From positions 434,001 through 468,566 of the forward strand of contig QPGO01000053.1 of assembly GCA_008632985.1 (NCBI GenBank): DNA of 34,566 nucleotides. Reading direction: 5' to 3'. Position numbers and translations under genes: made by a program. Each line of letters starts with the position of its first letter. The stretch's first letter is position 1. The notes beneath the pieces were generated by a model. The model was given only the letters and a program-made list of their open reading frames with translations. It did not search any database and was not told the DNA's origin. Shown one piece after another: positions 1-34,566 of the stretch. The stretch comes from Psammoneis japonica (Eukaryota).

Positions 1-94
1 CAGGAATGCGGGAGTCTGAGCACACAAAAAGGCCCATGTGCTGCATGTGCCTGGGTCAAACAGCCGATGTTGTTCCATGTGTTGCGTTGGGGCC

Positions 95-1558
95 CTCGAC
101 CCAAAGAATCAACCTGCTCCAGTGTGGTGTCATGTGATGGCATCAGGACAGCATTTGCCATTGCTGCTCTCAATGATCTGGAGGTCTTAAGCGCTGATGT
201 GCAGAGCACCCACATGAACGTGCACACTGAAGAAAAGTGTCACACTGCTGCTGGCATGGAATTTGGGAAGCACAATGAAGGAAGGCCAGCGATCAATGTC
301 TGAGCCTTGCATGGTCTCAAGTCATCAGGTGCACAATTTTGAGAACATGTGGCAGCCACTTTGCATGACACTGGTTTTGAGTCATGCAAGGCTGATCCAG
401 ATGTCTGGATGAGGGCTGCAGCCAAGCCGGATGGCTTCAAGCACTGGAAACATGCACTTGTCCATGCAGATGATTTGTTGTGCATCTCCCATGATGCCAA
501 AAGGTTGTGGATTACATGAGCTCTGGGTGCACATTGAAGGATGGAAGTGTCTGCAAACTGGAAGAGTGTCTGGGCACCCAGATCAGAAAGTGCCAGTTGT
601 CTGATGTGGATGGCAAGACACACTGGACCATGTCCTCTGACTTGCACGTTAAAAGGGCACTGGTTGATGTTGAGCTGGAGCTCAAGAGGACAGACAGGCA
701 CCTTCCAACAAAAGCATCAACACCCTTGAGCTCAGGACACACAGGCATGAACTGGATGGCTGACCAGAGTTGAGTGCCAAAGTGGCCAACTGCTGCCAAG
801 GCCTTGTTGGTGTGCTCCGATGGACAGTTGAACTTGGATGAGTTGACATCTTTGTTGCCATCTCACTCATGTCCTCCTGCCTTGCAGCACCATGAGTTGG
901 ACACCTGGATGAGGCACTCCATGTCTTTGCATGCTTGAAGGCTCACTCTGAGTCTTTGCCAGTGTTCTGCTTTTGACAAGAGTCGGTTTGCCAAGTGCAA
1001 CTGGGAAGAAGGTTGCCCTGGCATGGCTGAACCACTGCAGTCAAACATGCCAGAGACATGTGGGAATGGGTCAGCCGCTGTTTTGTCAATGCCGATCATG
1101 CCGGATGCCGTGTGATGTGCAGGTCTCACACTGGGATCTTGACATTCATCCAGCAAGTGCCCATCTTGCACTGCTCTAAACAGCAGAACACCACAGAGTC
1201 CTCTGCTTTTGGGTCTGAGTTTGTTGCAATGAAGACTTTGGTGGAGCAGATTGAAGCTTTGTGGAACAAGCTTTGGATGCTTGGAATTCCCATGAATGGG
1301 GCCACTGACATCTTTTGTGACAATGAAGCTGTCTTCAAGAACTCAACCAGGCCAGAGCCCACATTGAAGAAAAAGCATGATGCAATTGCCTGTCACAGGA
1401 CTCTTGAGGCACAAGCCGCAGGAATTTTGTGCATTGCTTGGGACGACAGATGCACAAATCTTGCGGATGTGCTGACCAAGTTGTCACCTGGACTGCAGCT
1501 CTGGGAGATCACATCACAAGTCATGTTTTGTGGTGAGTTCCAAAATGGGACAAACTGA
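95..1558 (+). mobile_element. Decayed Ty1/copia (CoDi-like) retrotransposon, reverse transcriptase and RNase H
   Basis: Motifs across frames: STCSSVVSCDGIRTAF, AGMEFG, ALHGLKSSGA (ALYGLK), LVHADD at ~457-474 (YVDD), FVNADHAG, SKQQNTTESSAFGSEF, FCDNEAV, KKKHDAIACH, NLADVLTK. Has frameshifts and TGA stops. Confidence 0.93.
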
Positions 1559-2329
1559 ACAGATTCACCACTTGGGTGTGGTTTTCCCTCCCCCAAAATT
1601 AAAACATCACCCTGGAACAGTGCAGCATCAGGTTGCATTTGTCTGTTAATCTGGCTCAAGCAGAGCCAGTGTCAGTTCGAGGAGACTGAGCAAATGCTGA
1701 CACACTGTCATGGATGTGGGCAGTTGTTTGCCACTGGCAATTGGCCCACTGTTGCTGCTCAATTGGTGGCCCCAGTTGCACAATCTCTCACAACTCTAGA
1801 ACCTGTTGATGCTGTTTCAACACTCTGTCTTGTCTGTCACCCAATTCTTGGCTGTCATGATGGCATTCATTCATGGTTTTGATGACTTTGAAATGGTGGA
1901 ACACTTGAGGGTTGCGCGCTGGAGTTTTTGACCCCCAGACCCATTTCAGTGCATGCCCACATGTCTGTGGAATGTGCCAAAATGCCAACGGTCCAAATAA
2001 AATTGTGTTGTTGGCACCTCGGGGGTGTTCTGCAGTTTTGGTTCCTCACCAATCAAAGAAATGACTCACAACATCAATTGTTTTGACATTTGCTTGTGTC
2101 ATGATGACCACACCTGAAACTCATGGTGATGCATTTTTGACTGCAGCCAAATGACTTTCTTTGTTTCTTTGGTCCAGCACTCAAATCAGCAGACTCTCAG
2201 CTTTCCATTGACACGTCACATGCTGTGGGGTCAATGTGTGCACAAAGTTTCAGTGCATCACAAGTGCTCAAATGCATGGCACCACATTGAAGTGATGCAC
2301 TTCTGTGCCCCATTCTTGTGGCTGATTGT

Positions 2330-3460
2330 CAGTCAGAGGAGCTCGTCAAGCTGGGTGAGCATTTGGTCCCTCTGGACCACTCAGATTTTGCAAAGGCACC
2401 TGATTGGCATTTGCACGACAATTCTGAGGCCAAGGTTGTTGGGCATGAGATCATGGCCCACATTTGCACAGTTGTGGCCCTGACCACAGCTGCCTTGGCC
2501 ATGTCCACAATTTCCATTTGGGGCATGTCCACCATTGCCATGTCCACAGTTTGTGTTGTTCATGCTCTGAGGGCCCACAAAACGGCCTCCACAAGGCCAT
2601 GACCAAAACCACAGCCTCGGTTTGGTGATCCTTGGCCTCCTTTCTGAAAGCAAGGGTTTGGATTGCAGTTGGGACTCTGAGGATTCTCTCCACAATCTTG
2701 CCATGGATGAGGCACAGCTGCATCTCGATGCAAGCAACAGTGAGAGTTGGGGGCAGATCTTTTCTTGTTCCCACTCAAGTCAGCATCCTTGGCCTTGTGC
2801 TTTTTGAAATCATCTTCCAACTTGTCAGAACAACCCTTCTGATCAGCAAATCCTTTCTCATTGGACACATGCTGAACAGTGTCTCCAAAAAGTCAGCCCT
2901 GATGTCCTTTTCAAGCATGCACACAACTCTGTTTTCACGACATGGGCATGCCCATGAAGGTGCTGTTCTTGACTTGCTGCTTGTCAAGCTGGGGTTCTGC
3001 GCCAGGCAATTTGTTGGCATGTTGTGACATTTGAGTCATTCTGTCTGCATGCTCACAAGGGGAATCACCAAAAGGTTTGGAAAAGTTCTTCAAAAACTCA
3101 AACATGGTGTCATGTGTTTCATGGTCACAGTGTTGTTGACAAAAATGCACAACTTCTGCCTTGGATCTGTCCACAGTCTGGTCTTCTTTGGCAGCAATGT
3201 CAGACACAATGTTGCTCTGTGTGTCTTGAGCATCATCTTCCAAAACCTCCTTAAAATGGGCAAACCTTTTGGTCCTTCATTGCAACCCAAGTGCTTGGCG
3301 CAATTCTCAAATTGCTCTGCTGTGAAAAACAACCACTCAGTGCCACACTTGCTGGCAAATTGAGGGCACATTTTTTGTCTCTTGTCACCATCATTGCAGT
3401 TTTGAATGAGTTTCACTTTGTGCAAGTTCCCATGCTTGAAGGTTGGTTTGCACACAAAGC
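2330..3460 (-). mobile_element. Decayed Ty3/gypsy-type gag remnant
   Basis: FLKNFSKPFGDSPCEHADRM...HANKLPGAEPQLDKQQVKN resembles diatom/oomycete gypsy gag. It is followed by a knuckle-like CCLH...HPWQDCGENP and a Gly-rich tail (GHGNGG...CGHGQG), probably a mutated RG/YG tract. No pol seen. Confidence 0.7.
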
Positions 3461-3949
3461 AAGGTGCTCTTGGCAATGCTCTCACCAAATGCAACATTCT
3501 CCCAAATGCAAGAGTGCTGCAGCAAGGCAAAGATGGGAAAGTGCAAGATGCAAGACATGCTGTGATCTGTGATCACAGTGAACAGTCTTTGTGACTGTCA
3601 TGAAACACTTTCTAAAAATTGCAAGAGAAGACTGCAAGTGAGGTCTCAAACCTTGTTTGGATTTCTGTCACGGAACCTTCTGTGGAGTGTTCTTTCTGAC
3701 ACCAAATGTTCCACAGAACTTTCTGCAAATGCTGCAGTCCTGGTCATTTGAATCTTCCAAATTTCCACTTGATGTTGCAAGCATGATGTGGAAGTTCACT
3801 TCAATCCCTGGTCCATGCATCCTGGCTGCATGAAACCACAACCTGGCTTTGTGCTGCTTCCAATTGACAATTGACAAAGCCGGTCATTTGACACCTGACT
3901 TGACCCAACCAGTCAAAGTGCTTTGATGACTGTGTCTGGGGGTTTCACA

Positions 3950-6900
3950 GAGTGTCAAACAACCAGAGGTGGCTTTCACAAGACAAGCAGCAAGAGGTGC
4001 ACATTTTTGGTTGTGAAAATTGCCATGTTGAGGAAAAGCACAACCTGGTTTGTGCTGGAGTTGGCACAGAATTCTGCACAGACAATGTTTTGAGTGCCAT
4101 TGTTTTAAATGTTGATGTTCATCACTGTGTCAGGCATTTGTCATGCCATTGCCAATTTTGTGTGGCGCACAATGACAAAGACACAACTGCAGTTGTGGTT
4201 GCACCTTGCAACAACATTGTGGTGAATGGCTGCAAAATGACTTTGGCCCAAACATTGAGCACTGTTGCACAAAAGCGCAGCCAGGCGCAGACCAGGGATT
4301 TGTTGTTTGGGCTTGATGCGCACAAAAACTTGGGTGCCACACCCGGATTTCCATTTGTGGCTGCTCTGTTTGTCATCACCAACACACTTTTGACATGACA
4401 TGATGACGCTGCACTGTTGTTCTGTGTCAAGTTCTGAAGAGGCATCCATGGGAAACCAATGGCAAAGCATTTCATCTAAAAGAGACACAGCTGTCACAGG
4501 CACGTGGGTGTGGCACCCAGGTTTTTCATTTTTGCATGCATCAAAGAGATTTTGATTTTCTGTCATTGGAGCAAAAGCTCTTGAATGAGAGCCAAAATGA
4601 CTGCAATTGATTGTGTTGACACTGTCATGGATTCAACATGGATGCTTGTGTCAGTTGTCAACAGCCATGTGCTCTGCATGAAAAAAACAATTTCTTGGTC
4701 AAATGCACAACTTCCTTGTTTGTAAACAAATCCCGGGTGTGGCACCTTGGCATTTTGCACCAAGACCAAATGACAACTCATCCTCATTCAATCCACACTG
4801 GATTGCCGGCAGTTGCCAGCCAGCCTCTCATTTCAAATGTGGTTGCACATCAGCTGCGGGGACTTCAAGGTTTTGTGTGCCAAATTTTGCGGGGCTCGGC
4901 TTTTTGAAATTTTGATTTTTTCCAAACACTGCAAACCGCAATGACACTCAACAATCACCATTGAAGCTGCTGTCAATGGGACAACAGAATGGACACAAGC
5001 ACAATTGGAGCCACTTCATTTTGTTCGTGAACTTGTGGCACAATGGTGCCCAGCACCAAGGCTGCAACCAACAAAAATAGAAGGCAAAGAAGGCTTGCAT
5101 TTGAAGCTGGGGCAACAAGCACAATGTGATGCATTCCACATGCATGCTTTGAATCCAACAATCACAGCATGACCCGCCTTGTGAAAAATTGTGGAAGGAG
5201 ATGAGAGTGCTCCACTGCAACGTTGCATTGAAAGTCACTTCAACCTGAGCAAAGATTGCAGGGAAGAGTGCAAAGTGTTGGCACATCACTGCCCCCCCCA
5301 AGCTTGCGCAATGCAGCTGCAACAAAGATGGCAAGGTGATGTGCAAGTTCTGGAATCACACGACTGCTCCATGGCTGAAGATTGCAACCACTCTCTGAAA
5401 AGAATTCAAACATGTTTGTGCAAGTGCTAGCCTGCCAGCACAACAGAGCCAAGTGCAATGCAACACCGTCATCGTGACATCAATTCTTTGATTGGGCAAC
5501 ATTTTCTCTTTGGAGGAAGCTTTCACAATGGTGAAGAATGGCAAAAGACAAGAATTGGAGATCCGCGAAGCACTTGAAGACATCACAGAATTCTCAGACC
5601 GCACAAGAATTTTTCACAACAAAGCAACATTGGACAACGGACGTGCTCCAGCCACACGTGTGAACCAAATTGCGTGCAAAAACAAGATCTGCACAATTTT
5701 TGCGTGGTCTCTGACTTTTGACCTAAATTTCTCCACCAAAAGCATGGATTTGTCCAAATTTCAATGTTTTGGCTGCAACACTGACAAGACTCACATCAGC
5801 GTTGCAATGTCATTGTTTTTGTGCCACCCATGTTTTTCATTGCGACAAACAAGCTGCAACACAACAGATGATTTTTGGCAAAAACATTGCCATTTGTAAG
5901 TGCACTTTGCAGTTGGAGATGTCAATGTGAAACAATTTTTTATGATGCTGTCCAGCAGGTGTTCTGCCTTCAAAGAAATCTCTGCAGCCAATGCACTGAT
6001 GCAGAATCAGCATTGAGTCCACTGAGGAAGTTTGTGATGCACATCCCATGAGGACTTGAACACAAACAAAAAAAGCATTTAAATGTGCATGTTCTGGACA
6101 CCTGTGAAAGCCCATTTGCTCAAGTGTTTTGCATGAAAATGCTCCATGCACGAGAGATGCACGTTTGTCATTTTGTGCATCACCTGGGACTGGAACATGT
6201 CAAAGATTGCATGAGCAGCTGTTGTTCACAAGGAGAACAAAGTTGAAACATGGGTGGCTTGCCTTGGTTTCTGAGCCTCATTTCACAGTTGCAAAGACAC
6301 TGCTGCATCAGATGCAGCAATGCTCTGATGCAAAAGCTTTTGAACATCGTGGCAATGATTTTCTTAACTTCTGCATGGAGAAGGTGATGGGAGACAAGGC
6401 TTTGCACTGCTCTTTCTTGAAAACAGCCCAAGAGAATGGCAGCAAATGAATGGCCATTGCATTGCTGAGGTGTGTGTGTGTGGTGGAAGAAGAATCTCAT
6501 GAAAAAGGTTGTCCACACCTGAGCCACAGCAGAGCACCAAAAATGCAGAAAGCAAACTGCAGATCGTAGAGTGAAGGGAGTGCAAAAGCAGTGTTCAGAA
6601 TGGAGCTCTCATGGCAAAATCTGAAAAAGTGACAAAAGAGCATGCATCAAAGAAGAGAGTGGCAGATCAAGCAAAAATGACAAGAAAAAGAGGAGCAAAA
6701 CAAAGCAGACATGCGCCATTTTGCAACATGCTGCATGATGCATTGGCAGTGCCAATGACTCCAACAGATGTTGATTTTGAAAGGATTCGACATTGTGCAT
6801 GGTGCTGTTTTTGGATCCGTTCATTGAAAAAGCTTCGCCCCACAAAATTTGGCATGCAATGGTTCGAAGTCTCCTCAGAGGCTGCAGGAATGTGCTAGAA

Positions 6901-7500
6901 GTGAGAGGCCGGCCAGCAACTGATCCAGCGCTGATTGAACATGGCCTGTCTGTCCTGTCATTTGATTGTGTGTTCACGGGACAAAGGAGCAATGCACATG
7001 ACAAAACACGGCGCAGCACCTCAAAATCATTTGCACATCTTTTTGTTGCATTTGGGTGGTTTCAAAAGACCCGCAGTTGTCCTTGCAAAACACAAACACC
7101 AAATTTGCCCATTTTTAAAATGCTGCAGACATTTGTTGTTAAAGACATTTCTCTCATTGAGTGCATTGCACAAAAAATGTCTGCTGCCCACAAGTGTTTT
7201 TGTCGCTGCACAAAATGCCCCCCAAGTCTGCGATTCCTGCCTCCTGGCCTTGCCAAAGTGAGACCTGGTTTTCAGTGCCTTGCAACAATTGACAGACCCA
7301 GTCATTTGGCACCTTTGGTCAACCCAAGCAGACAGAACATGCTCCCATTTCTTTGGCACGCATTTGACTGGGCAGATTCAGAGAGCTGTTTGTGCACAGC
7401 AGAAGAAACCACACACTCCAGCTCACAAGTTTGGGCAGGTCTTGTCTGTCAAGAAGTGCTTTTTTCATTCTTTGGTTTTCTTGCCCTGGTGTCATGACTT
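3950..7500 (+). pseudogene. Unclassified decayed coding remnants, probably from a repeat element
   Basis: Broken protein-like frames (5191-5430, 5492-5899, 6129-6449, 6793-7497) in TA-depleted DNA. No family recognised. Confidence 0.3.
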
Positions 7501-10249
7501 CTCTTCCATCCAATCAGCAAAGTGTTTTGGCGCTTCTTTCATGGATTGTTCTTCTTTGTCAACAAAAAACAAAAAGAGGCCGCAAAGCGGCCAGCACTTG
7601 ATTTGTGCCATGTGGCTCATCCTGTCCAAGTGATCTCAAGCATGGAGTGTGTGGTCCTTAGACTGCGCAGGTGTGCACGGGCATGAGTGCAAGCAGAAAT
7701 GTTGCAGACTCAGCATTGTTTCAGTGGAAGGAGGCTTGATTTGTACCAGCACACAATCTGCACCATGTTCTGCATGCAATCATTGATTTGTCCTGGCTTG
7801 TGTGGGTTTTGCACAACATGGGGTTTTCCAATGATTCAAATGCTCACAATGAGACAGAACACCCCAAAACAAGTCTGGAATCTGTGAAAAAAAAAGCCCT
7901 GTTTAATGGTCTGAACAGCTCTGTCATGAAGCGCTTCTCAAAATGTCTGCATGTTGCACATGGCAAAAAATCTGCTGTTGACAAAAAAGAGTCACTGTGG
8001 ACAAAACAGAGAATTCTGTGTCAATGCTGCACACTGGAGTGCTGCCAATCAACAGCTTTTCCTGCAGGGCATGGCCAGTTGCACACTTGCATTGAACCCA
8101 GGTGTGCACAATCAGCCAGCCCCACCCCGGCCAACTCACATCATTTGTGTCCCTGCCATGACCTCTTTCATCCAACATGACATCACCAGCAGTGCACCGC
8201 CCATGTGCATTTCTGTGTTTTTCCCTCCAATCAACCAAAGCCAGCATTTGAACTTCATTCTTGCCAGATGTGTTGATTCATTTTGAAATTTTGGCACTTG
8301 TCCAGACATTTTTGCACACATTTTTGCAATTCAAAGGCACCAACAACCATTGGATCCTCAACATGGCAAACTTTCGCAATGTTTGCACCACTGTGCAACT
8401 TCTTGCAGCCAGTCACTTGGTCAAGGCAGTGCCGCAGTCCTCACACATGCCCAACGACTTGTGTTGTGTGTTTGCACAGAGGAGGAAGAAGAGGTGGCAG
8501 CCTGAACAGAAGATCCTGGATCTTTGCTGTTACACTCAACCACACAGTGTTGCAACATCAAAAAATGTTGCCAAAATTTCAAAAAGGTGAAGGAAATGTT
8601 CATCATGTGATTGTGAGTGTAAATTTAATTTGTGGTTGTTTGTCACAATGACCATGCCCAAAAGAACAATTGAGACAAACACATGCCATGAAAAGGACAT
8701 CAAAAATTTAAAATGAAGAAAACCGCTCATTTGCATCATGACATGGGTTCACTGTTTCCACCTCTGATGTGTGGCTGGGAGATTTGGATGAAGACCTTGT
8801 CATGCATGCAGCACACATGGTGCAGCCATCAAGTGCTTTCTGAAAAACTCTGAAGACACTGAAGACAAGGCAAGACCACAGCTTTGTCTGTTGGTGATTG
8901 CTTTGTGGATCTGAAAGTGACCAAGATGGTGGTGCTTGACAACAAGCCTGTGATTGAGGACAAACCTTGTGGTTGGAACTGGCTCTGCTCATTCCGCGTG
9001 TTGGGCAGATCCAGATGCTCAATTTGGTCTGCCACAAGCTGCTGGAAACCTTTGTGGCATGTGGAAATGAGGACACATGGGACAGGGTGTGGAAAAGGAG
9101 GAGGAGGAGGAAGTGGAGTGTGAGGAGAGAGTCAAGCATGCGGATTTGTCAAAGGGGCAGAATTGCCCAGCTCCAACTTGGAACAAAGCTGTGATGGAGT
9201 CAGCAGTGTGCACAGAGTGGAAGACATGTGTGAATGCCAGAGCCTCCACAGAGCCCAGAAAGCACCAGCAAGAAAAAAAAAGCTGCTGCTCACAATGCAC
9301 AGCACTGTTTCTGTTGTGGTGGGCAGGAAGTGCAGTGGATGCCAGGACTGCATCCATGATGTGTTCATCACCATGCCATTGGATTGGCTGAACATGACAG
9401 TCTTCAGTCAACTCAGTGCATGCTCCAATTTTCCTTGGAAGCACTTGCAGTGCTGTGAGCCATTGGGCCTCAGAGTGGGGATGTGGCATGGTGACGTCTT
9501 TTAGAAAGCTCACACCTGTGCCCAAACTGAGTTGTGTCCACAACATCATTGCAATCTTGCTGACACATCAGTTGTTGTTCCTGTGCCTCAAAGGTGCTGA
9601 AGGAGTTGTGTCATCTGTCCAAGGCCCTGCTCGACATCCAGAGATCTGAAGACTCCACCACCTGAGGAGGCTGGCACCTTGGCATCCTGTGGCAGCAACT
9701 CTTCATTGTCCAAAACAAGTTTTGAAAGTTTGTCTGAAGGGTCCATCAAGACAGAATCATGGCAAGATGATGCCCCACTCATCTTTGGCTGTGAAAATGG
9801 GATTGATTCACTCAATTGCATCCCCAGTGTGAAGGAACTCCATCTTGTGTGACTTGAATCCTGGCATGAGGAACTCGTCCTGTTTGTCATCATCCTCTTG
9901 AGTCTCGTCCATCAGACTGCAGTGCACTTCATCACCCAGAGTTTGTTGTTGCCGCACTTCAAGCATTTCTTGCTGTTGTTCCTTTTCTTCTTCTGTGCTT
10001 TCTGCTCTTGATCTTTGGCATGTTGCAGAACCTTTTGGGGACATTCAAGTCCATCAAGACCATGATTTTGTCACTCTTCTTGACCTTGTGGTGGAGTTGT
10101 TTCTCACCAAATCTCCAGGTGCTCTGGACACCATGCCATCTCATTGTCACCCTTGTTGCAAAAGGGCAGCAGAGTCAAGTGTTTGCAGTTCACCAAGCCC
10201 AACATGATGACAATGTGTCGGGTGATGACAGGGAGTCCTGCTGCAGCCA

Positions 10250-11130
10250 ATCACTTTCTGGTGCACCCTGAGTCACCTGCAATTGCACTGCTGTGTGTTG
10301 CACCAACCGCTGCATGTCTTGCAATGACAACAAGCCACTGGAGTGCATGATTTTTGCCAGATTTGTGAGGTTGCAAATTTGTTGTCCGTTGATGTCATGC
10401 TGGGCCAACTTGTTGCACACATCAGTGAATTGGAGTCTTGTGGTGGCAAACATGCTTTCCCAGATGTGTGCTCATGACAACTGGTCAAGATTGGGATGAT
10501 TGAGTTGCAGCATGACATGACTGAGGATTGCTGGGTCCAAGACCTGTGGTCGGTTGGCCCTCAGGAAGAGAATCCCATGGCAGCAGTCGAGCAGTCTCAA
10601 GAACACACCAACAATGGCAGAGCATTCCAAATCATTGCCGCAGGCAGCCAGGAAGATCTTGCACTGTTGAAGTGCAAGACTGTGTTCCACCACATGACCC
10701 ATGCACAGATGAGACGCAGATTCTCCTCAATGCTGCTCAATTCTGTTCCAAGCTCCCCAAGTTCCAACACACAGAGCAGGCACCAGGCATGTTCTGCATG
10801 GATCTTGGCGGTCAATGTCTTCCCCACCCTGGTCTGCAACATGCCAGGATGACCATCCACCATGCTTGCCATCAATCAAGTTGCCAAGCAGGGTCTCCAC
10901 CAAGGTGTTGAACACCTGTGAGAGGATCTCCAGCATGTTGTCCAGCAAATGCAAACAGCTCATCATTGCCTGCTTGTCAAGTGCACACTCTTCCAGGTCA
11001 TCAACACCAATGCAAACAAAGTCTTTGAGGTTGAGACTGTGCACGTGCACAACTGGCAAGCAGCTTGTCTCTTTGCAATGTTGCACATGCAGGCTGAGGC
11101 AGCTGCGCTTTTTCTTGGCAACTTCCAAGT
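10250..11130 (-). pseudogene. Decayed AAA+ ATPase fragment
   Basis: GNLIDGKHGG; disrupted Walker A GHPG...VGKTLTAK; GELGTELSSIEENL; WNTVL; IFLAACGNDLECSAIVGVFLRLLDCCHGILFLRANRPQVLDPAILSHV, matching the FLRLLEYY.GILFLTTNR...D.A..SR signature with Y->C and R->H. Confidence 0.88.
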
Positions 11131-11149
11131 GTGGCTCTGGAAGACAAAT

Positions 11150-12286: not shown

Positions 12287-13034
12287 GTTTGTGAAGATCA
12301 ACAAGAACCATGGAAAGGCCTGTGTGCAAATGAATGGAGTTGGAAGAACATGGCTTTCCACAAGCTGTTGGCTTGTTGCTGATGTCAATTTCCTTGCACC
12401 CTCTCAAGCACCATTTCCAAGACTGTCCTTTTGTTGTCAAGCTCTCTCATTGGAAATTGAGGACTGTCATCAGCATCCCAGAGTCTCTGTTCTGTCACAT
12501 GGCAGTTCCGGCCGCAGTTCCTGGAGATGCAGTGCCTTGCTTTTTCAAGGATGGCCACACCAATTTCCAGCTCAGTGAGCCATCGTGGAAGAAGCAAATT
12601 TCCAATCTGGCCAAGATTCAGTTCAAGTGGATGCCAAGGCCCAACTTGTGAGGATTCCAGACCAGAAGACAATCTGCGTGAATCCTTTGACCCTGCTGCC
12701 AAGCCTTGGGAGTTTCGAAAAGTTGACATTGACGAGCTGCAATTCCATGGGAGAGAAGACTTGGACAGAATGGTGGACAAATGTGCAGAAGATCTGTTGT
12801 GGATTGCTGCAGTTGCAAACATTTTAGAGTTGTTGTGCCACAGCTTGAGCACAGCTTGACAACCATGAGCACAGCAGGAGATTCAATTGGAGTCTCTGGA
12901 TTTCCCCTCATTGTTGCTGTTTGGGACAAAGATGATGAGGAAGCAGTCAGGAGTTTTGGCATCAGAAAGAAACAGCCAAGTCAGAAAAAATTTCATTCAT
13001 TCATGCATTGGAAGCATTGCCGTTTTGGGAATGG
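12287..13034 (+). pseudogene. Decayed, 5'-truncated inverted copy of the 19415-20395 gene
   Basis: Aligns at nucleotide and protein level: FVVKLSHWK, WKKQISNLA, QFHGREDL, TTMSTAGDSIGVSGF, VAVWDKDDEE. The stop TAG reads TGG at 13032-13034. Confidence 0.95.
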
Positions 13035-13144
13035 CGCTTCTTGATGGCACAGCTGCAATGAATTGGGCACATTGTTGTTGCACAAACAGTGCTGCACTGT
13101 GCATTTCTGGTGTGCCACATCAAAACTGCGCCCTTGGACAACTT

Positions 13145-13344: not shown

Positions 13345-13349
13345 TTGAA

Positions 13350-19306: not shown

Positions 19307-19414
19307 GTCATCTGAGAGTCCAGTGTTGATGTAGCGTATTAGCAACCCATAGCGTAGTGCCATTCGAATGACGACAACGTGTGCAACTTATTACTATCGT
19401 ACCATCAAGAAGTA

Positions 19415-24790: not shown

Positions 24791-25259
24791 AGCATGCAGA
24801 ACTTGCAAGGAATGATGTGCCTTCAGACACCCTTGTTTTGCATTTCGTGTTTTTCACGACTTGTCAAAACGGAATGACAACGGCAACCGCGAACGCAATG
24901 TGCTCCATCAACAACCACAAACTCACCATGACACCAACATGTGTCGACAGCTTGTAATTCGAATCACACGCACATGCCTTGCTGTGCTTTGAAACTGATT
25001 GATCATGTCAAAAACTGCTGAAATGTCCAACCATTTGCCCATTGCTTTTCACCGCATGAGTCAACCATGAGCCCGTTACACTCTCAATGTGCCGCACATG
25101 AGTTCATGAGATGCGACACACTGTTGATTGTTGTGGCTCTTGAAGGCAATGATGTTGAGAAAACGGTGACCGTAGAGTTAGTCACCGTCGGCGAATTTGC
25201 ACTGAATCTGAGTCGTGCTTGTCGAGCTGGCATGGCTGCCGCTTTGCGATGATTCATGT

Positions 25260-26850
25260 GCCCACCATTCTTGTTGTCGATCCCGTCTGACCGTGGCCAC
25301 CAAAAAATTTTTCATGGCGCTAAATTTTTCTTTTTTTTGTGGAACGAATCCACCATGGCGGCATCTTGAGCAGTTCCAATGGGCCATTGCGGCCTCTCCA
25401 TGAACCAATGCGGGGCAACGCTGACACCTTCTCTTCCCACATTGAGTGGTGTGTGGCAAGAGAATGTCTCCAACGTGGAGATGCACCATTGATGCTCGAC
25501 AATGCTTTGATTCACCTCTGTCACGAGTCGGAATCTCTCGATCACATGGTGGCTTTTCAATGAGTTTGGCATCTTGCTTCTGTTCCCACCAACTTGCTCC
25601 CCCAAGTTGACTCCCATTGAGAAAATGTGGCTCACACCAGTGCAGCGACTCAAGAGCTGGGACCCTCACAGCCCGCATCCAGTGCAGGGTGCAGCAGCAC
25701 ATGCACATGCCAGTGCGGCAACCATGGACTTGTTCTTGCTTGATGATTTTGCCGTGGCGCACACTCTGCATGGCTGTCTTTGCTGGGCTGGACACCACAA
25801 CCACCAACAAAAGATTCCAAATTTTGACATTGACAACTGGATTGCAAGAAAATGTCCACCTGCTGGAGCACAAACCATCGCGTCATCTGGGTTGCAGCAG
25901 CAGCAACTGAAGCATTGTGCAGTCTTTAAAAAATGTGGCAACAGGGCTCCTGACAGAATGGCATGCTGTGCTGCTGATGTTGCTCCACATCAGGGAATCA
26001 AAGTGGCATTCATCCAGTGTCACACCATCTGCCAAAGACAATTCAACGTCGTTGGAAGCTGACTCGACATCCGAAAGAGAAAGAGTGTCGGGAGCAGGCA
26101 GCCACAAGACATTGACTGCCCACACTTCAAACATTTGTGGAATTCGATTCAGTCACACATGTGACAATTTGAACAAAAGTCTTGGGATTCGAAATCTTCC
26201 AAACACCAGTTGACCACCAATTGATGGGCAGAAAGCAAAGATCACTCTGACTCACAGTTGCAACATCAAATGCGTCCTGTCATAGAAAAGAGGCAGAATT
26301 GGGAAGGCTCCAGGTCACAAACAAATCCTGTGTAGCCAAAGAAGCCCGTGATTGCTTGGTTCTCAAAAGAATGGTCCGTTTTGAGTGCTGTTTCACTCTG
26401 CCACCAATTTCAGAGACAAAACTGGCAATTGGCATGGTCACGATTAACCTTTGCATCCCATCATTTTCAAGAAGACTGGGCACACACAGTTGTTCAACAT
26501 GTCAGAAGATGTTGTCAGACAGCCAGCAATGGGGGGAGAAACCTGTTTGCAGCACAAACAAACAACTTTTGTTGATTTCACGGGAAACAAACAATGGCTT
26601 GCACTTCTTTTTGACAATTCTCTCTCTTGGAACACACCTTGCCAGCGCTTTTGCATTGCAGCTTTGTCAATCATGCAAAGATGTTCATAAAACGCCCCTG
26701 GACGTCTCTGGGCATTGCCTGCTTGCTGAGAACACACACCGAGAAGGGATCTGATGGCTGATCACTTTTGAGTTCATTCCACAAAAAAAATTCTCGTGGT
26801 GAAAAATTTTTGGTGGCCACGGTCAGACGGGATTGACAACAGTGGTGGGG
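25260..26850 (+). mobile_element. Internally deleted Tc1/IS630-like DNA transposon bounded by ~90-bp inverted repeats
   Basis: Transposase C-terminal fragment at ~25400-25750: GNADTF, LMLDNALIH, LLFPPTCSPKLTPIEKMW (LPPYSPELNPIE.W). Inverted repeats at 25260-25347 and 26774-26850 share tcccgtctgaccgtggccaccaaaaa. Confidence 0.75.
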
Positions 26851-27829
26851 CCGGCAGCAAAAAAAAAAGGTGATTTTGCAGAAAAAAACAACCCAGCACA
26901 GCGCTCCATTGCATGATGGATGAGATGAGACAAAGGCCAGCTGCAACACAGCACCCAAACAGGAAAAAAACTGCTCTCCCGATGTCTCGTGTCATTGTTG
27001 GTTTCAGCATCACATTGCATCTCCCATTGCCAAAGGGTTGGAAATGCAAAAGAAAGTGATGTGCATGGGGGCAAAGCAACTGAAGATGACAGCCAACCCT
27101 CTCTGCCAAGCTCAGAGCCTGACCTGGCTTTTGAACAAGGCCCCAAGTGCAGAAATGATTGCCGGCAGTCATCGCAGCAAGGGCGAGAAGTGGCTGCACA
27201 AAGAGTTTGAGAAAAAGCAAAGAACTTGCATCTAAATGAAACAGCACCCAGTGCCAGCCATTTCAGCACTGTGGAAAAAATGAAGCTGTCCATCAGAGGC
27301 CCGTTTCCATGAATTGTCTTGTGGTTGGACCAGTGGACAATGTTGCTGATGTCATGTGTGAGTGTCATCACATGAATTTGTTCATGACAAATCATCACTG
27401 TTTAACATGACTTGACATGATCACACCCATTTGCCACAAATTGGTGTGATTGAAAATGAACAAATGTCCATCCAAACCAACAAAAGTCCAGGGATGTCAA
27501 CAGACAGCAGTCAATCCCAGCAAGTGGGGTGCAACTCAATGAGCTCACGACTCCAAAGAAGTTGCTTGACATGATTTCAATTGCCTTGTCGTTGCCGACT
27601 GTGTGATGACCAAATGCAGCATTGGGGCTTGTTTTTAATTTTTGCTGTCAAAGTCAATCGGTTGACCAGCATGTCAACGTGTGAGTGCAAGCAATTGCTG
27701 CCAAGTCAATCTTGTCCAGCCCCAAACTGCCACCAACTCCAGTTTGTAGATCTTGGCACAGCTGACTTGTTGGTCGTCTTCATCATCTGAGCCATCCTGT
27801 GCTTCTTCCGCCACCCGCTCATCTCGCTC

Positions 27830-29150
27830 AGTTGCAACATCTCTGCAGAGAGCTGCCCCCACTTGCCAAGGCGTCCTCTTGCAACACCTTGCTTGATCTC
27901 CTTGACCATGTCAACAAAGAACTTGTCAGCCCTTGGTGACCACCCTTTGCTCTTCTTCGGTGTCTTGCACTTCCTTGGTCTCCTGTGTTTCCATCTGTGT
28001 CTTTTGGCTTTGCCGCCGTGAAATGCTTGAGTGTCCTGACAACCTTTCTCCTCTTGCTGGATGCGTCTGCATTGTTTTGGATGTCAATGAGCACTTTCGC
28101 AGCATTGGTCAGAGCTGTGACTTGTGCTGCAGTCTTTGGCTTGTCTCTGATCTTCTTGACCATTGTGCCTCATTTTTGGCTCTTGTGCCGACAAACCTCC
28201 CTCCTCCAATGGCTCTTGTGAATCCTTCTGGAGCAGCACAAATGTGCTCTGGTCCTGGTCTTCCTTCTCCTTGGCTGTTGCAAGGTCTGGCATGATGTTC
28301 TTGCACAAGTTGTTGCTTCCCTCTTGGTCTGTCATTCCTCCATCATTGGCCAACTCCATGTCGTAATCCAACATCAAAGTCCCATCCTTGTTCCAGCTCT
28401 TGCAGTCGGCATGCCACGCATTGTGGTTGTTCTTGAGGAGCATGTGGGCAAACACCTCAGCACATGCTGTGCCCATCCTCTTGTCCTTGGCAATGCTCTC
28501 TTTCCAGCATGTCTCTCTGACAATTGGACGCAGCATGCAGTCACAGAACACTGTCAGCAAAGCCGGGTTTCCCAAGTGATCTTGGAATCTTTCCATGGAC
28601 GGCAAGATGCAATTGTTGTCATTGCAGCATGTGCACAAAGAGCTTCATTTGCAGCAGACAAAGCAAGTGACGATGCTGTCAGCAGTTGCAACGGCTGCTC
28701 TCATTGCACCCTCCGTTTGCACTCACTGCAGAACTTGTCCTGCTGTGCCTGGTGCGCATTCAACCTCTTGGCTGCCAGCCACTCCTGACATGTTTTTTTT
28801 TGTTTCAGTGCAAGCCACAGGTGGTGCAGGTGTGTTTTTTGCTCTGGCTTGGGCAAATCCTGCAGCATCCCATCCATCATCTTGGGGCTGCAATTCTGTT
28901 CATAATCCCTGCAGAGCATTCCTGTTTCTTCCATTTCCTTGTTGTTGAATGTGAGTGTGACACTGAGGAACAATGTTTCCTTGACATGTTCTCTCACCTT
29001 TGCTGTGTCCTGCATGACCTTGGCATGATCCACCATCCATTCAGTTGAGCTTGTTTGCTGCTCCACAACAACCATCGTCCTCCACTGCTTTCTGGAGATT
29101 GCCGAAGCACACTGAAGCAAGGTGAAGGATGCGGTTGAATCTTGCAAATG
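27830..29150 (-). pseudogene. Decayed unknown ORF, possibly a transposon accessory gene
   Basis: Successive minus-strand protein-like frames (HVKETLF..., AEVFAHMLLKNNHNAW...) with a Lys-rich end. Family not identified. Confidence 0.4.
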
Positions 29151-30070
29151 ATGTGCATGTGACGGTTGTCTCTTTGTCCCTTCTGCACATTTTTTTGCTC
29201 ACCTTGACAGGGCGTCTTCACCACATTTTTTTGCTTGGCTGGACATCTTCTTTTTGATTTAAATGAGTCCATCTTGCAATTCAAAACCTCTCATCTTTAA
29301 TGTCTGAACATGTTTTTTGCCATGATGTCTGATGTCTCTTTGCGGCCAACTCTCCAACAGCTGTTGCCACCCTGCCAATCAACTCCCATTCAAAAATCAA
29401 CCGAGTCTTCACTCAACAATTTGATTCAAAAATCAATCCAACATGTGCATGCCAACAAATGGTTGTGAACTGCCATCCAATTGTTTTGTTCTGCTGTTTC
29501 TGCCTTCCTTTTCCCATTGGCCCATTGGCTTGGCATGCCTTCTTGCCACCGTCACTGCCAATGCCGGCAAAATGCACCCCGTTCACAGCTCACGAGAACG
29601 CCAGCAACAGAGAGGTTTTGCTGGCACAAAAAATTGGCAATGACATTCCTGGCAACCAGCAACATGTCCGAGTGTGCATGCGTGCTCATGCCATCCCTGG
29701 TCAATCATTGCTGGTGTGGAAAAGTCATTGCATCCTCAAAAGTGCTTGCGGCGCCTGTTGCTGGCACAATTGGCATTGTCGGTTGGACTCCCCCCGCAAT
29801 TGTTGCTGGTTTTCCAGGTGACATGTTTCGCTGGTTTCACACATTCCCAGAACCATCCTTTGCTGGCAATGATGCCGATGACATCACCGGCCCAAAATGC
29901 CATTTCTGGTTCAACTGGCGACAATGCACAGGGTTGCACCATGGTCCGACCATTGCTGCGCATTTCCTTTTGCAGCCACGCAATGCGCCAAGACAACAGC
30001 ACAGCTGCAACAATTGCTGATGAGCTCCACAACATTGCATGCACATGCTGGTGCTCTTGTGGTGTTTGAT

Positions 30071-30470
30071 GGAAGTCCAAAGCAACAGGAACGATGGTGC
30101 CAGAGAGAAAATCCCAGAGCTTTTTGGCCCAGTGCAGAGCAAGCCGTGGTCCTTGAGAGCATTCAACCAACTCAAGCATGCACTTGTGACAAGTGGGGAC
30201 AATTTCATGGATCATTCTCATTCTGAATTGTGCCCTTGCAGTCTTCGCTGGGGGTTCAAAGCAACAGGAGCAGGCTCAGAGAGAAAGCCTCAGAGCTTTT
30301 TGGCGCCTGGTGCAGAGCAAGCTGCGGCCCTTGAGAGCACTCAAACAACTTGAGCATGCACTTGTGACAAGCAGGTGCAATCTTGTGGATCATTCTCATT
30401 CTGAATGGTGCCCTTGCGGTCTTTTTTGCTGGGGGTCCAAAGCATCAGAGGAGCGATTGCTCAGAGCTCT
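30071..30470 (+). repeat. ~180-bp tandem repeat, two copies plus a partial third
   Basis: t(c/t)caaagca recurs at 30076, 30255 and 30436. Shared blocks include gtgcagagcaagc, agcatgcacttgtgacaag and ggatcattctcattctgaat. Confidence 0.92.
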
Positions 30471-30499
30471 AAAACATCAGAGATTTTTGGACAAATTGC

Positions 30500-33400
30500 T
30501 CATCAGTTGTTTGTTTCTGCCACTGAGAACAACAAAGCAGCAAACCCCAGCACCAACTTCAACACAGATGACCCCCACATCTCCAGTGGCAGTGCCAAAC
30601 AGCTTCCTGGTGAGTTCACAGCAGACGAGGGCTGGATCGGAACTGGGTTGCCAATGTGGAAGAACCAGTGGAAACCAGTCTGGCAAGAAGCCATGATCGC
30701 CATCTTCACAACCTTGTAGATTCCAAGTGCATCTCAGAGAAGAAAGAGAACAATGACTCCCATTGACAACCACAAATCCTGGGTGCAAGAGGTGGGGAAC
30801 TCCAACCTCTCCATGACAATTGAACCAGCCTTGTCAAGCTCCTTTGTCTTGTGTGGGCAACGATTGTTGAGAAACATGTTTGCACAATGAAGAGAGCTCC
30901 TTGTGGGCATGGTTTGTGGCTGAGACATGCTTCAGCATCACGGTCTTCAACGGCCGTAACATCAGATGCTTGTCAAAATGTTTGCCGCATGTTGGTGGCT
31001 GTTGGCAAGGAACTTGACCAAAATGATGTTCCCCAGCTTGTCTGTGATGAACACACAGAGGGCTCCGGGGGTCTTGGTGCATCCATGCCAAATGCAGTTT
31101 TGATCATTGGGATGAATCTTGACACTGTCAGGCATGATCTTGGCTTGGACAGTGCCAAGCTCAATCCTCACTGCTTTGCAACCAAGCCCAGTGCGGAGCA
31201 CAGTCGCATGCATTTTGGTGCGTGCGTTGTTGTCACAGGGGCAAGGACTGCCAAAGCACTGCATTCTCTGGCTTGTCATGGCACCTCTGCATGGAATCAC
31301 AGACATCCGCATGGACTTGATCTGATTGCAAATGCCAACGTTTTTTTCTTTCTCGAAGATTCCCAAACCGACCTGTTGTTTCAGGATGATGTTGCCATTC
31401 TCAAGCACTTCGTGCAACCAACCACAGGCTCCAAAATCAATCCTGTCCCTTTTCTCTGGTCGCTTGGAACAACCATTGTAGTTTTTCTTGTTGTGCTTGT
31501 CATTCTTGTCACAAAGGGCATTGGAACAGTCATGTTCAAACACAAAATGGGCAATCACGCCTGCATCATTGGAGATTTCCGAAATGTTTCTGCCAAAGAC
31601 ATGAGGTAGAGAGCAAAATGATGGCATCATCCTGGATGCATTGAGCTCTTGGGGGCACCACCACAAGCTCTCGATCATGACTTGCGGCAGAAGGAAGTGG
31701 TTGTGTTGTCTCAAAGGAATGAAGATGATGGCACAGATCATCCAGCAGGCAACAGTCAGCTGGAGAATGGCGCAAGTTTAACTCGTGATTGGTGCATTGC
31801 TCATCATCCTTGTCATCGTCGTCTGGATCATAAAAAACAGAAACACAAGGAGCACATCTCAAGACATCTGCAGGTGACACAAAGCTGCAGCTGCAGCCAT
31901 GGGAGGACCAAACCTTGATTGACAAGGAAGTTGTGGAGCTTGCCGATGTGCTTGGCTTCAATGGAGACAATGCAGAAGCAACTCCTGAGGATGCACCAAC
32001 AGCACCAGTGTCCACTGCATTCTGAATGGGGTCATCATTGAGTGATGAATCACCATGCAGCAACAACTCTCCATCCAAAGATGACTCGGCTGTGTGGTCA
32101 ATGGAAGGTTGCAACTGGGAGGCTGGTGTGCTGATGGAGCAGTTGGTGGCTGGTGGGGCATGAGCCGTGGTGAAGGTCAGTGGAACAACAGGGTTCTGGT
32201 TGGTGTCTTTTTTGGATGCGGTGGGAGGAGGTGCCAGAGAACCAGCCAACACAGTGGAGGACTCCTTGTTCTTCTTCCTCCTCTTGGTGGAAGAGATGAA
32301 CTTTGCCTTGGCTTCCAGGAAAGGTGTGGATGCATGAGATCATGGACGCGTGATCGTGCAATTACCAGGTTGCAGAACTTGAAGCGATTCGTGTCCTTGC
32401 AGGAACGCTTGAAGGTGGAGTGGAGCTCACATTCAACCAAATCTTGGTGTTTTTGTGCCATGCCTTTTGCCAAGGCACGGGTGTTGATGCAAGCCTTGAC
32501 ACACTCCAGATGATGGGCGAGGATCTTCTTGGCAACCTTCCCATCCTTCAACTTCTGATTTGAGCCAATCAGGGTCAACACATTGTTGCAAAACAGCACA
32601 AACTGCTTCTTCTTTTTGCAGCCGGAAAAAAGGATGGTGGGCTGGTTTTGAAAATTGCTGAACTCTTCATTGGTGTGAGGCACAAAGCAACAGTCCTTCA
32701 TGGCAGCAGCGGTGCTCAGGCATTGCACAAAAAAGCCCAACTTGGATGAGAAGCTGGTGATCTGAAGGAAGCAAGGGTCATTGCCAAGTTGATCATGCAC
32801 TGTCATCTGCCACAAATCATCAATGATTGCATGAAGATTCTTGCCAAATCAGGAAAGATTGGAAAAGGTTTCAGCCAGCTTGTGGCACTCAAGAACACAC
32901 CTTCCATCTTTGCTGCAGAAACACAACCAGCCACGACTTTTGGCAGTTGCAACAAACAAAGGGCGAGGCAATGAGATCAGTGGAGGGAGTCCATTCAGAA
33001 TTTTCAAGAAAGTGCTGATGGTGGTGCTGTGTCTTGATGATTCTTTTAAATTGAGCCTTGGTCATGCAGGCACCACCAACACCATTGGTGTGCTTCAGCT
33101 TGGTTGTCAAGCACAGAGCCATTGACTCTGCCCAAAGAATCGTCGTCATTGTCATTTTTGTTGGGAAAAGAAAGATCACCAGCATGGCCATCATCGAGAT
33201 CTCTGGATGCAGATGGCATCCCAGCTTAAGAACTGCCTTGGCTGGTTGAGTCATTGCCATTGGATTCATTGTTGGAGCTGAGATTGACGTCAGCAGGGAT
33301 GCTTGGCACCACTGTGGAGGGAGAAAAACTTCAAGCAACAAGCCGCCATTGTCAGGAGACATGACAAAGCAGAGCGCAGCACCAGCTTCACATTTGGTGT

Positions 33401-33500
33401 CATTCTTGGATGAATCAGAGTGAGAAGAGAGATGCCCCTTTTGCTTGGGCATCACTTTGTGCTGGGACATGATCACAACGGTGGGAGAGGCAAACCGCCA
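30500..33500 (-). pseudogene. Long decayed coding remnant of unknown family
   Basis: Consecutive minus-strand frames 32889-33476, 32177-32815, 31566-32252 (Pro/Ser/Asp-rich linker) and 30962-31741. Confidence 0.35.
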
Positions 33501-34566
33501 TGGGCAATCGCAGCATGAACAGTGGTGATGAAATCCTGTGGACTGCTTGTTGTGCTGCTTTTGTGGTTCTGCAGCGATGATTCACCAAAAACACAGGGGG
33601 GAGTGGATCCACAGATCAGAGGCAGAAGGGACAAATGCCCATGCACAATTGCTGAGGTAAATGGCACAAATGAAACATTGTGATTTGCCAGTGATGCACC
33701 TGCAAAAAGCTGTCAAGGAATGCAAGAGACATTTCTTTGGTGCATCCACTTCTTCACCCTCTGTTGTCCTCATTGCCACCAGTGTCCACAACAAGTGGAG
33801 TGTGCCTGAAAGCATTGATGCACGCACTTCTTGTTTTTTCCTCAACTCGGTGTGCCAAAAGGCAATCTGCACTGTTTTCATTGCTTGCACGTGCCTGATC
33901 CCAAACATGGAGCACAAATCACTGGAAACATGCAAACCAACAAGCGCTGGTGTCACATTTGTCAGGAGGCCTAAGTTCTGGGGAATGTGGCCAGTTCAAG
34001 CCAGATGCGTGTGTGTTTCCTTCTCATGAGAAAAACAGAGAGACCACGCTGGTCAAGACAGTGACAACAGAGGGAACAAACAAAGTCCATGTTCATGTTT
34101 TATTTGGGAAGTTGGTCATGGAAATTAGAGCCCAGTCAAGATTTGGGAGTGTGGGCTGATGCACTTGACACCCTGTTGCACAGGGCTGTTTCTGATGGCG
34201 GTGGTCACACAAGCCTTCTGCAAATGGTGTGCACAAGCCTGCAGCCGCACTGTGGTGAAAGGCTGATGGACAAAGCAGTGTGGTCTGCTCCATCATGAGG
34301 GCTGTTGGTTTCAGCACAAAGGACCTGTCAGATGATCACAAGCATGGGGCAGCTTTCAAGAATTTTCCAGCATGCCAAACTGATTGATTTGTCTTGAAAA
34401 AAAGCACAAAATGGGACCAGAGGTTTTGAGCATTGGTTTTGCCTCTTGTGAATTGCTGGATGACAAGCAATGAGCAAGCTGGGCTTTTGGTTGTGCAGAG
34501 GACAGAGAAAAGGGGAATCCGAGACATGCAAAAAACTGGCCAACTTTTTTGTCAACATTCCCTTTT

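Follow-up and report, generated by a model that had tools for sequence, protein, structure and literature searches.

How does a short block of ordinary genes come to lie between two long stretches of DNA that are nearly devoid of the dinucleotide TpA? This question is raised by a locus of the diatom Psammoneis japonica (GenBank assembly GCA_008632985.1, contig QPGO01000053.1, positions 434,001 to 468,566), whose 34,566 nt are referred to below as the window. The window is nuclear diatom DNA and consists of a 6-kb group of normal genes, the gene island, between two old domains of transposons and pseudogenes, the flanks. An initial annotation, made from the letters of the sequence alone, had proposed that the flanks were rewritten by a region-restricted conversion of TpA to TpG or CpA, i.e., the reverse of the repeat-induced point mutation (RIP) of fungi. 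Our follow-up makes it likely that the locus records a real, domain-restricted and TpA-specific A:T to G:C hypermutation on top of CpG decay.

The ratios of observed to expected counts (o/e) of TpA, CpG, TpG and CpA were computed per dinucleotide in 1-kb bins across the window. The TpA ratio ranges from 0.00 to 0.08 over positions 1–14000 and from 0.02 to 0.09 over 22001–34566, whereas it amounts to 0.49–0.73 in the island (16001–22000). About 27 kb of flank had been claimed to be nearly free of TA next to an island of normal composition, and this description stands: the TA-poor flanks sum to ~26.5 kb with 75 TA, compared with 268 TA in the 6 kb of the island (Table 1). CpG is depleted as well, with ratios of 0.06–0.34 in the left flank and 0.16–0.71 in the right flank versus 0.82–1.22 in the island, and the TpG and CpA ratios of the flanks are nearly doubled (1.3–2.1). 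All 14 bins of 1–14000 and all 13 bins from 22001 onwards combine a TA o/e of at most 0.09 with a mean TG/CA o/e of ~1.57–2.0. The sum of the pyrimidine–purine (YpR) dinucleotides is constant, namely 24.6% and 24.2% in the flanks versus 23.4% in the island, and the joint loss of TA and CG (1171 left, 900 right) approximates the joint gain of TG and CA (1337 and 1006). The frequency of AA/TT is steady (16.9% and 15.4% in the flanks versus 16.8% in the island), that of AT is likewise unchanged, and the GC content is 45–51% in the flanks versus 44–48% in the island. The TA-free state is found in sequences of unrelated types, whether coding or non-coding, and on both strands. Its right border is sharp at about position 22000, with seven TA in 21751–22000 and none in 22001–22500, and its left border is gradual, with a transition zone of 2.5 kb.

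The direction of the change can be read from a pseudogene in the left flank, designated copy C, which derives from the TA-normal host gene B in the island, 7 kb away. Among the 37 TA sites of B, 16 are TG and 14 are CA in copy C (30/37), a single one is still TA and six are otherwise altered; the changes at these sites are almost all A to G or T to C transitions, with almost no transversions. The 62 CG sites of B became CA in 24 and TG in 21 cases (45/62), and seven were retained. All four aligned tyrosine codons of B are changed in C, reading CAC, TGT, TGC and CAC and thus encoding histidine or cysteine. The same replacement is seen in the right flank, whose longest coding remnant is a reverse transcriptase (RT) frame at 22304–23971. 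It has 25 homologues at E values from 1.6e-160 to 3.8e-61, of which several carry PF00078 and the named ones are Attheya and a CCRYP-tagged EukProt record. Its tyrosine content is 0% compared with 1.1–3.4% in 25/25 homologues, and all seven columns with a conserved tyrosine are changed in the window (four His, three Cys), so that the two sequences together give 11 of 11. The conserved arginines of the RT are replaced by Cys, His or Gln at 9 of 23 positions, which reads as the footprint of CpG decay. The initial annotation had described the exchange of tyrosine for His or Cys across several unrelated sequences; this holds for the RT and copy C. In the DUF1254-domain remnant of the left flank, the three tyrosines aligned with Protein Data Bank structures are Cys, Phe and Ala; only one of three conforms, and the comparison carries little information on tyrosine.

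The RT family is not TA-free by nature, since 79 of 79 related metagenome loci have a TA o/e of 0.30–0.92 and none of them is TA-poor, in a scan of which one of the two patterns demanded a tyrosine and was thereby biased against hypermutated copies. A third line of evidence is the repeat at 14.5–16 kb. At 14782, 14784, 15347, 15506 and 15820 the window has TG or CA, but the other copies of the repeat among the contigs of X1, the only DNA run found, have TA; the opposite, a TA in the window, occurs at one place (16015); this ratio of five to one refers to the 40 differences listed of 1105. The comparisons are direct sequence evidence that the flank state arose by conversion of TA to TG or CA and not the reverse. 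Deamination of 5-methylcytosine (5mC) is unable to remove TpA, and a second process besides CpG decay is therefore required. The proposal of such a process, aimed at TpA within a restricted, repeat-rich domain, is upheld by copy C, the tyrosine codons and the repeat copies alike.

The specificity of this process was resolved by scoring A to G changes on either strand of copy C relative to B. They affect 34 of 74 adenines in TpA, where one hit destroys the site and half is accordingly the ceiling, but 12 of 160 in ApA, 16 of 164 in GpA and 22 of 143 in CpA; the rates of A to G and T to C change are thus unequal across dinucleotide contexts. For C to T changes the corresponding values are 49/126 in CpG versus 12–23 of 110–143 in the other contexts. 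As A to G change is frequent at TpA and rare at ApA, the target is TpA and not WA (W = A or T).

The few TA sites that survive in the flanks disclose a further rule. TTAA accounts for 25 of the 75 survivors compared with 11 of the 268 TA of the island (Fisher p 8e-11). Relative to an expectation scaled from the island, survival is 0.52 for TTAA, 0.13–0.15 for CTAA/TTAG and GTAA/TTAC, 0.04 for ATAA/TTAT and CTAC/GTAG, and 0.00–0.01 for ATAG, GTAC, ATAC and ATAT. A context model for the ten tetranucleotide classes, in which the A of each strand mutates independently and its rate depends on the 3' neighbour alone, gave hazards of 0.32 before A, 1.50 before G, 1.84 before C and 3.12 before T (1 : 4.7 : 5.8 : 9.8), on the presumption that the flanks once had the tetranucleotide make-up of the island. 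The model fits the data (deviance 6.6, 6 degrees of freedom, p 0.36), whereas a context-free model is rejected (likelihood ratio 122, p 2e-26). With the hazard lowest before A and highest before T, TTAA survives best and ATAT not at all. The process acts per strand with a 3'-neighbour preference of T>C~G>>A that leaves TTAA as the main survivor. The residual CpG of the flanks has flat contexts without any preference for flanking bases.

The two processes also differ in their kinetics. TpA loss is ahead of CpG loss in the multi-copy RT region at 22–26 kb, where the TA o/e is 0.02–0.09 and the CG o/e still 0.52–0.71, and in the transition zone, where two thirds of the TA and little of the CpG have been lost. 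The TpA process hence outpaces the concurrent CpG decay. The order of TG and CA along the DNA is random, both at 75 polarised sites (runs test z 0.4, -1.6 and 0.35) and across all TG/CA of the flanks (z 1.8 and 0.3); strand-coordinated tracts of the kataegis type or the single-round RIP type were sought in the flanks and at the polarised sites, and none were found. A peculiar class of differences are sites at which one copy has TG and the other CA. Between B and C, such TG/CA double differences make up 18 of the 142 TG/CA sites, and four repeat pairs of the flanks contain seven, compared with none among the 41 differences of the island paralogues A and B. They are as expected if new TA or CG within the domain is quickly re-resolved to TG or CA, and may hint at recent activity of both processes. 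Between the window and a 5715-nt X1 contig that was built from exact 31-mers and covers 8056–13765 with 15 other letters, 13 events were distinguished, comprising eight exchanges of CpG with TpG/CpA, two TG/CA doubles and three others.

We propose that two transition processes at the DNA level have run almost to completion in the flank domains, both of them ending in TpG and CpA. The first is ordinary CpG decay, presumably through deamination of 5mC, and the second a faster, strictly TpA-specific A:T to G:C hypermutation. As the copies and inserts of the window show, the TpA process acts after insertion or duplication, hits either strand independently and affects any sequence in the domain, be it retroelement, DNA-transposon insert, DUF1254 remnant or duplicated host gene, and it stops at the domain border. 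One example is the insertion at 25272–26841, which is absent from other copies of the surrounding repeat, as X1 contigs join 25271/25272 to 26840/26841; it contains just six TA, so this nested element is hypermutated too. Repetition alone is not the trigger: B as the partner of copy C, the A/B pair and a high-copy element at the right border, which resembles a miniature inverted-repeat transposable element (MITE), are all unmutated, and the word depth of the left flank equals that of the island (63.4 versus 56.8 for the respective X1 contigs). The targeting signal would instead be guided by chromatin or RNA.

Regarding the chemistry, the adenine of 5'-TA-3' would be deaminated to hypoxanthine by an ADAT2/TadA-like or other deaminase that is recruited to silent or foreign chromatin, and replication would then fix the change as G. 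An enzymatic base conversion is indicated by the strict transitions, the targeting of a single base and the neighbour rule. Adenine deamination is the most economical chemistry, to which we would assign, taken on its own, a chance just short of even. ADAT2/TadA-like deaminases, which are marked by the motif HxE-PCxxC, act on an A that is preceded by U at tRNA positions 33–34, and the corresponding requirement for a 5' T agrees with the concentration of A to G changes at TpA. The role of the process would be the irreversible inactivation of mobile DNA, as a functional mirror image of fungal RIP, because tyrosine codons and the stops TAA and TAG are destroyed.

Several observations weigh against this interpretation. 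The frequency of A to G change is somewhat raised at CpA (22/143), which we attribute to cycling between TG and CA, but which could equally reflect a weaker off-motif activity. The hazards of the context model depend on the former make-up of the flanks presumed above, and A to G on one strand is indistinguishable from T to C on the other. The element at the right border and the paralogues A and B are unmutated. X1 may be the assembly data of the window itself, with an unrecorded platform, and is then not an independent platform. Finally, the chemistry, the targeting signal, the role in defence and the silenced state of the flanks are parts of the scenario that we infer.

The indistinguishable strands lead to the rival that survives best, a thymine target. 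Here, a TET/JBP-type dioxygenase would oxidise the T of 5'-TA-3' in silent chromatin to 5-hydroxymethyluracil (5hmU) or 5-formyluracil, and mispairing with G or mis-repair would give T to C, with CpG decay as a separate process. T to C at TpA mirrors A to G, and all sequence results fit equally well if the neighbour rule is read as a 5' preference of A>G~C>>T. 5hmU pairs normally with A, however, so a near-complete conversion would need further oxidation or faulty repair. Dinoflagellates, which belong with the diatoms to the stramenopile–alveolate–rhizarian (SAR) lineage, make 5hmU by means of TET/JBP homologues, which the authors of the study link to transposon silencing (PMC11572971), but neither a specificity for TpA nor any effect on mutation is reported in the passages considered. 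We consider a thymine target unlikely, though worth keeping in view.

Far less probable is error-prone patch repair, the candidate that the initial annotation had named first, before a deaminase. In this scenario, T:G mismatches left by 5mC deamination would attract non-canonical mismatch repair together with a polymerase of the Pol eta type, which mis-inserts at WA. Pol eta is known from the somatic-hypermutation literature to change A to G at WA, TA being a hot spot, and the TA-free domains are CpG-depleted, so that T:G mismatches were once frequent there. The sequence context disfavours this candidate, as ApA is not hot (7.5%, which equals background, versus 46% at TpA) and AA/TT is unchanged. 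Moreover, the younger parts have been stripped of TpA more thoroughly than of CpG, which would make the supposed trigger rarer than its consequence; the TA sites are almost without transversions (30/37 TG or CA, one TA, six other); and the outcomes are neither clustered nor strand-coordinated, as patches would be.

It is slightly more improbable still that the footprint is an artefact, in which modified bases of heterochromatin (5mC at CpG, T or A at TpA) are miscalled and the real DNA keeps its TA and CG. Both lost dinucleotides are palindromic sites of a possible symmetric modification, and the only DNA run may be the assembly's own. Yet contigs of exact 31-mers with a word depth of ~60 match 5.7 kb of flank with 15 differences, and miscalls predict disagreement with the assembly at hundreds of sites where only two TG/CA discordances occur. 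A strand-specific miscall also predicts all-TG and all-CA versions instead of the random mixture that is observed, and DNA that is partly mutated lies side by side with high-copy DNA that is not. The same tyrosine signature is present in four unrelated public protein records, and Illumina data underlie the TpA mutations reported for the chlorarachniophyte Bigelowiella natans (Mettrop et al., bioRxiv 10.64898/2026.01.13.699255). The four records are low-tyrosine RT homologues among the ENA metagenome proteins (P0214, P0277, P0156 and P0208; 35–51% identity, 0–0.4% Tyr), which have His or Cys at 6/6, 3/3, 1/1 and 1/1 of the conserved-tyrosine columns that they cover; P0214 retains most of the conserved arginines. 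They are possibly hypermutated copies in other public assemblies and may be from the same species. A shorter protein search for other copies of the RT gave no match above 58% identity.

The notion that no mutator was involved and that the flanks are foreign or were selected to avoid TA, be it through a TA-cutting nuclease or an odd codon usage, can practically be dismissed. Selective dinucleotide avoidance does occur in phages and viruses. Here, however, TA is missing on both strands of unrelated kinds of sequence, non-coding DNA included, copy C goes back to a host gene of normal TA content at a distance of 7 kb, the relatives of the RT have normal TA, and conserved Tyr and Arg are destroyed and frames interrupted by stops, which is no adaptive recoding.

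The mechanism is thereby narrowed, not solved. Returning to TpA-specific hypermutation by base conversion, a wider proposal can be made, to which we give appreciably less than an even chance: diatoms and chlorarachniophytes may share an active, chromatin-targeted defence by DNA editing, whose enzyme would convert the A (or T) of 5'-TA-3' on double-stranded genomic DNA to G (or C) according to the 3' rule T>C~G>>A. It would scramble transposons, viral inserts and stray gene copies and spare the neighbouring genes. Such a “reverse RIP” would be widespread in SAR algae and represent the first natural eukaryotic genomic A:T to G:C editor.

Table 1. Features of the 34,566-nt window of contig QPGO01000053.1 in the order of their position.
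Feature	Position	Strand	Remarks
Left hypermutated domain	1–13500		36 TA and 139 CG in 13.5 kb; TG+CA = 23.3% of dinucleotides
Copia-type reverse transcriptase remnant (RVT_2), weak	112–501	+	PF07727, E 3.9e-4, residues 38–167 of frame 1
DUF1254-domain remnant	10922–11593	+	Pfam PF06863, E 2.8e-5, above cut-off
Copy C, hypermutated pseudogene of B with downstream DNA	12354–13345	+	73% identity to the reverse complement of 19083–20140
Transition zone	13501–16000		30 TA and 92 CG in 2.5 kb; TA o/e ~0.21, CG o/e 0.68–0.81
Repeated element, partly hypermutated	14554–16243		76-nt inverted repeats, 91% complementary
Gene island	16001–22000		268 TA and 330 CG; normal dinucleotides including intergenic DNA
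Gene A, paralogue of B	16448–17217	+	ORF 16462–17217; no Pfam family; not hypermutated
TrpD (anthranilate phosphoribosyltransferase)	18145–19306	+	PF00591, PF02885; 91-nt GT..AG intron 18868–18958
Gene B, intact TA-containing reference for copy C	19415–20395	-	326-aa ORF
High-copy MITE-like element	21777–22010		~230 nt, internal inverted repeat; TA and CG intact
Right hypermutated domain, multi-copy repeats	22001–34566		39 TA and 313 CG in 12.6 kb
Hypermutated non-LTR-type reverse-transcriptase frame (LTR, long terminal repeat)	22304–24730	+	In-frame TGA 23039–23041, TAA 23972–23974
Nested insertion, TA-poor	25272–26841		1.57 kb, 40-nt terminal inverted repeats, 95% complementary

The island carries a TrpD gene (PF00591 with E 1.1e-66). 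Its best match is a metagenome protein with 90% identity, and the named relatives among the matches listed are diatoms with 80–85% identity (Cylindrotheca closterium 85%, Pseudo-nitzschia, Nitzschia). Genes A and B form an inverted pair around TrpD, with 224 nt (16448–16671, plus strand; 20186–20409, minus strand) that are 82% complementary; copy C in the left flank also belongs to this small local gene family. The island harbors one further open reading frame (ORF), and its intergenic DNA contains TA as well, with 22 sites in 20501–20750. A contig of run X2 (labelled “DNA?”) omits the TrpD intron, and X2 contigs also omit 21229–21344 (GT..AG, minus strand); because of the missing GT..AG introns, X2 behaves like transcript-derived data. 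The flanks have little or no cover by X2 and none by X3, which is no evidence that they are silent. The MITE-like element, with loose ends of X1 contigs at 21777 and 22010 and a summed word depth of 5526 in the bin 21341–22007, ends exactly at the right border of the TA-free domain and is either a young insertion or exempt from the process.

In the left flank, the RVT_2 remnant scores 20.5 bits and lies below the Pfam cut-off of 31.6, and the DUF1254 remnant is matched by the structures 3vb9/2p3y (VPA0735) with E 1.8e-5. The latter contains a 48-nt tandem duplication (11192–11287, 85% identity) whose copies differ partly by TG/CA doubles. Many X1 contigs fall on the repeat of the transition zone, and at 14910–14913 one of them has CACA where the window has TGTG, i.e., two adjacent doubles within one copy of a partly mutated repeat. 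Altogether 1968 X1 contigs of at least 80% likeness map to 8001–28000, with the depth mostly on 21341–28000. Further downstream in the right flank, a tandem repeat of ~178 nt (30051–30423, 78–79% identity) has copies that again differ partly by TG/CA doubles.

The family labels of the initial annotation were re-examined by Pfam scans of 130 ORFs of at least 100 aa, six read-through frames per flank and 150 of 157 flank ORFs of 60–99 aa. The RT of non-LTR type and DUF1254 are recovered in our analysis and the copia affiliation is retained weakly through RVT_2, but gypsy gag, Tc1 and AAA ATPase were not recovered by the scans of ORFs, read-through frames and short flank ORFs. At E<=0.01 the Pfam scan missed the RT frame itself despite homologues of E 1e-160. 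The sub-threshold matches to CoV_NSP2_N, PH_FT_N, Toxin_19, DUF4620 and LRRC37AB_C look like composition noise of Cys/His-rich translations and were rejected; an example of such a spurious match in the flanks is Toxin_19, with 23.1 bits against a cut-off of 23.2. The stop codons on both strands are skewed, with 42 TAA and 16 TAG versus 685 TGA in 1–14000, and 44 TAA and 16 TAG versus 585 TGA in 22000–34566. The whole window contains 130 stop-to-stop frames of at least 100 aa, and long frames are common on both strands, a consequence of the near-absence of TAA and TAG.

The locus has implications for annotation, genome defence and enzymology. Hypermutated transposons escape profile searches, since their tyrosine codons and their TAA/TAG stops are lost, and spurious long ORFs on both strands are a trap for gene callers, so that annotation needs a step that is aware of “de-mutation”, as for RIP. 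A natural A:T to G:C rewriting at one dinucleotide and in one chromatin domain would be the missing counterpart of the C to T systems (RIP, APOBEC/AID). That a diatom shows the footprint in saturated form, one year after the real-time evidence from a chlorarachniophyte, suggests a wide spread in SAR algae, and if widespread, the process would shape the repeat content in the genomes of ecologically dominant phytoplankton. The 3'-neighbour rule, with TAT as the best and TAA as the worst target and TTAA spared, provides a biochemical fingerprint for candidate enzymes, and such an enzyme would be of interest for base-editing work.

How does the diatom footprint relate to known systems? It resembles RIP of Neurospora and other Ascomycota in that mobile or duplicated DNA is irreversibly hypermutated by transitions at one preferred dinucleotide, which leaves compositionally aberrant, gene-poor blocks beside normal genes. 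RIP, however, converts CpA to TpA and yields AT-rich DNA, whereas TpA is here converted to CpA or TpG and the GC content stays at 45–51%. RIP moreover mutates both copies of a duplicate, but of the present pair only C, and not B, has been mutated; single-copy DNA of the domain is mutated, and the island paralogues and the high-copy MITE-like element are not. Diatoms possess RID-related DNMT4 genes of unknown function and DNA methylation of transposons is on record for them (PMC9998398), but no link of these genes to the present process emerged. The CpG component has the mutation spectrum of 5mC decay, with CG to TG or CA at 45/62 sites, flat contexts of the residual CG and exchanges of CpG with TpG/CpA in eight of the 13 events between window and contig; the removal of TpA, which is faster than that of CpG in the younger parts, is alien to such decay.

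Dinucleotide-specific base deamination against retroelements and viruses, as proposed here, is known in animals from APOBEC3/AID (on DNA) and ADAR (on double-stranded RNA). APOBEC/AID changes C to T in strand-coordinated clusters, whereas the present changes are A to G and uncoordinated. ADAR edits RNA, and thereby only the sense strand, while both strands were hit within one RT frame (His in four cases via T to C, Cys in three via A to G) and non-retro DNA is affected as well, namely the host-gene duplicate together with the DNA downstream of it, and an insert bounded by terminal inverted repeats. The 3' preference of ADAR is G, unlike the rule T>C~G>>A derived here. A likeness to ADAR is its preference for a 5' U (as quoted in 10.64898/2026.01.13.699255). 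The 5hmU of dinoflagellates (PMC11572971) is a modification of A:T pairs in the SAR lineage that its authors associate with transposons and that could start a T to C route, but it is an epigenetic mark, for which the passages considered report neither a mutation footprint nor a TpA rule.

The closest relative is the TpA to TpG/CpA hypermutation of integrated viral DNA in mutation-accumulation lines of B. natans (Mettrop et al., bioRxiv 10.64898/2026.01.13.699255). According to this preprint, two viral inserts acquired 231 new mutations, of which 230 were A to G or T to C, all at TpA, with a rate of ~1000 times background that was intermittent among lines, and a deaminase-based genome defence with an ADAT2-like candidate was proposed. 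The initial annotation knew of no description in diatoms, and in the literature on TpA, RIP-like or deaminase hypermutation we likewise found none; the phenomenon as such has been described in B. natans in 2026, and the diatom case, which displays the sequence characters of this kind, is not categorically new. Both share the exclusive A to G and T to C changes at TpA that give TpG and CpA, the restriction to particular non-host nuclear regions (here RT, RVT_2, an insert with terminal inverted repeats and pseudogenes), and the clusters of 1-kb windows with TpA depletion and CpA/TpG enrichment, which in B. natans are enriched for RT and DDE domains. The differences begin with the host, a diatom (Stramenopila) instead of a chlorarachniophyte (Rhizaria), and with the targets, which here comprise remnants of transposons and the duplicate of a host gene instead of giant-virus and virophage inserts. 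Mutation accumulation documented the activity in B. natans in real time, and here it is deduced from the footprint, with the TG/CA doubles between the window and the X1 contig and the partly mutated repeat as indirect hints. The main text of the preprint contains neither diatoms nor the terms “CpG”, “trinucleotide”, “context” and “flanking”, whereas strong CpG decay is coupled to the process at the present locus and a 3'-neighbour rule of T>C~G>>A with spared TTAA could be derived from it. The diatom DNA is also more saturated, with a TA o/e of 0.00–0.09 compared with a Rho of 0.45 in an insert of a nucleocytoplasmic large DNA virus, a measure that our per-dinucleotide ratio only approximates, and it is the cleanest footprint of this hypermutation available.

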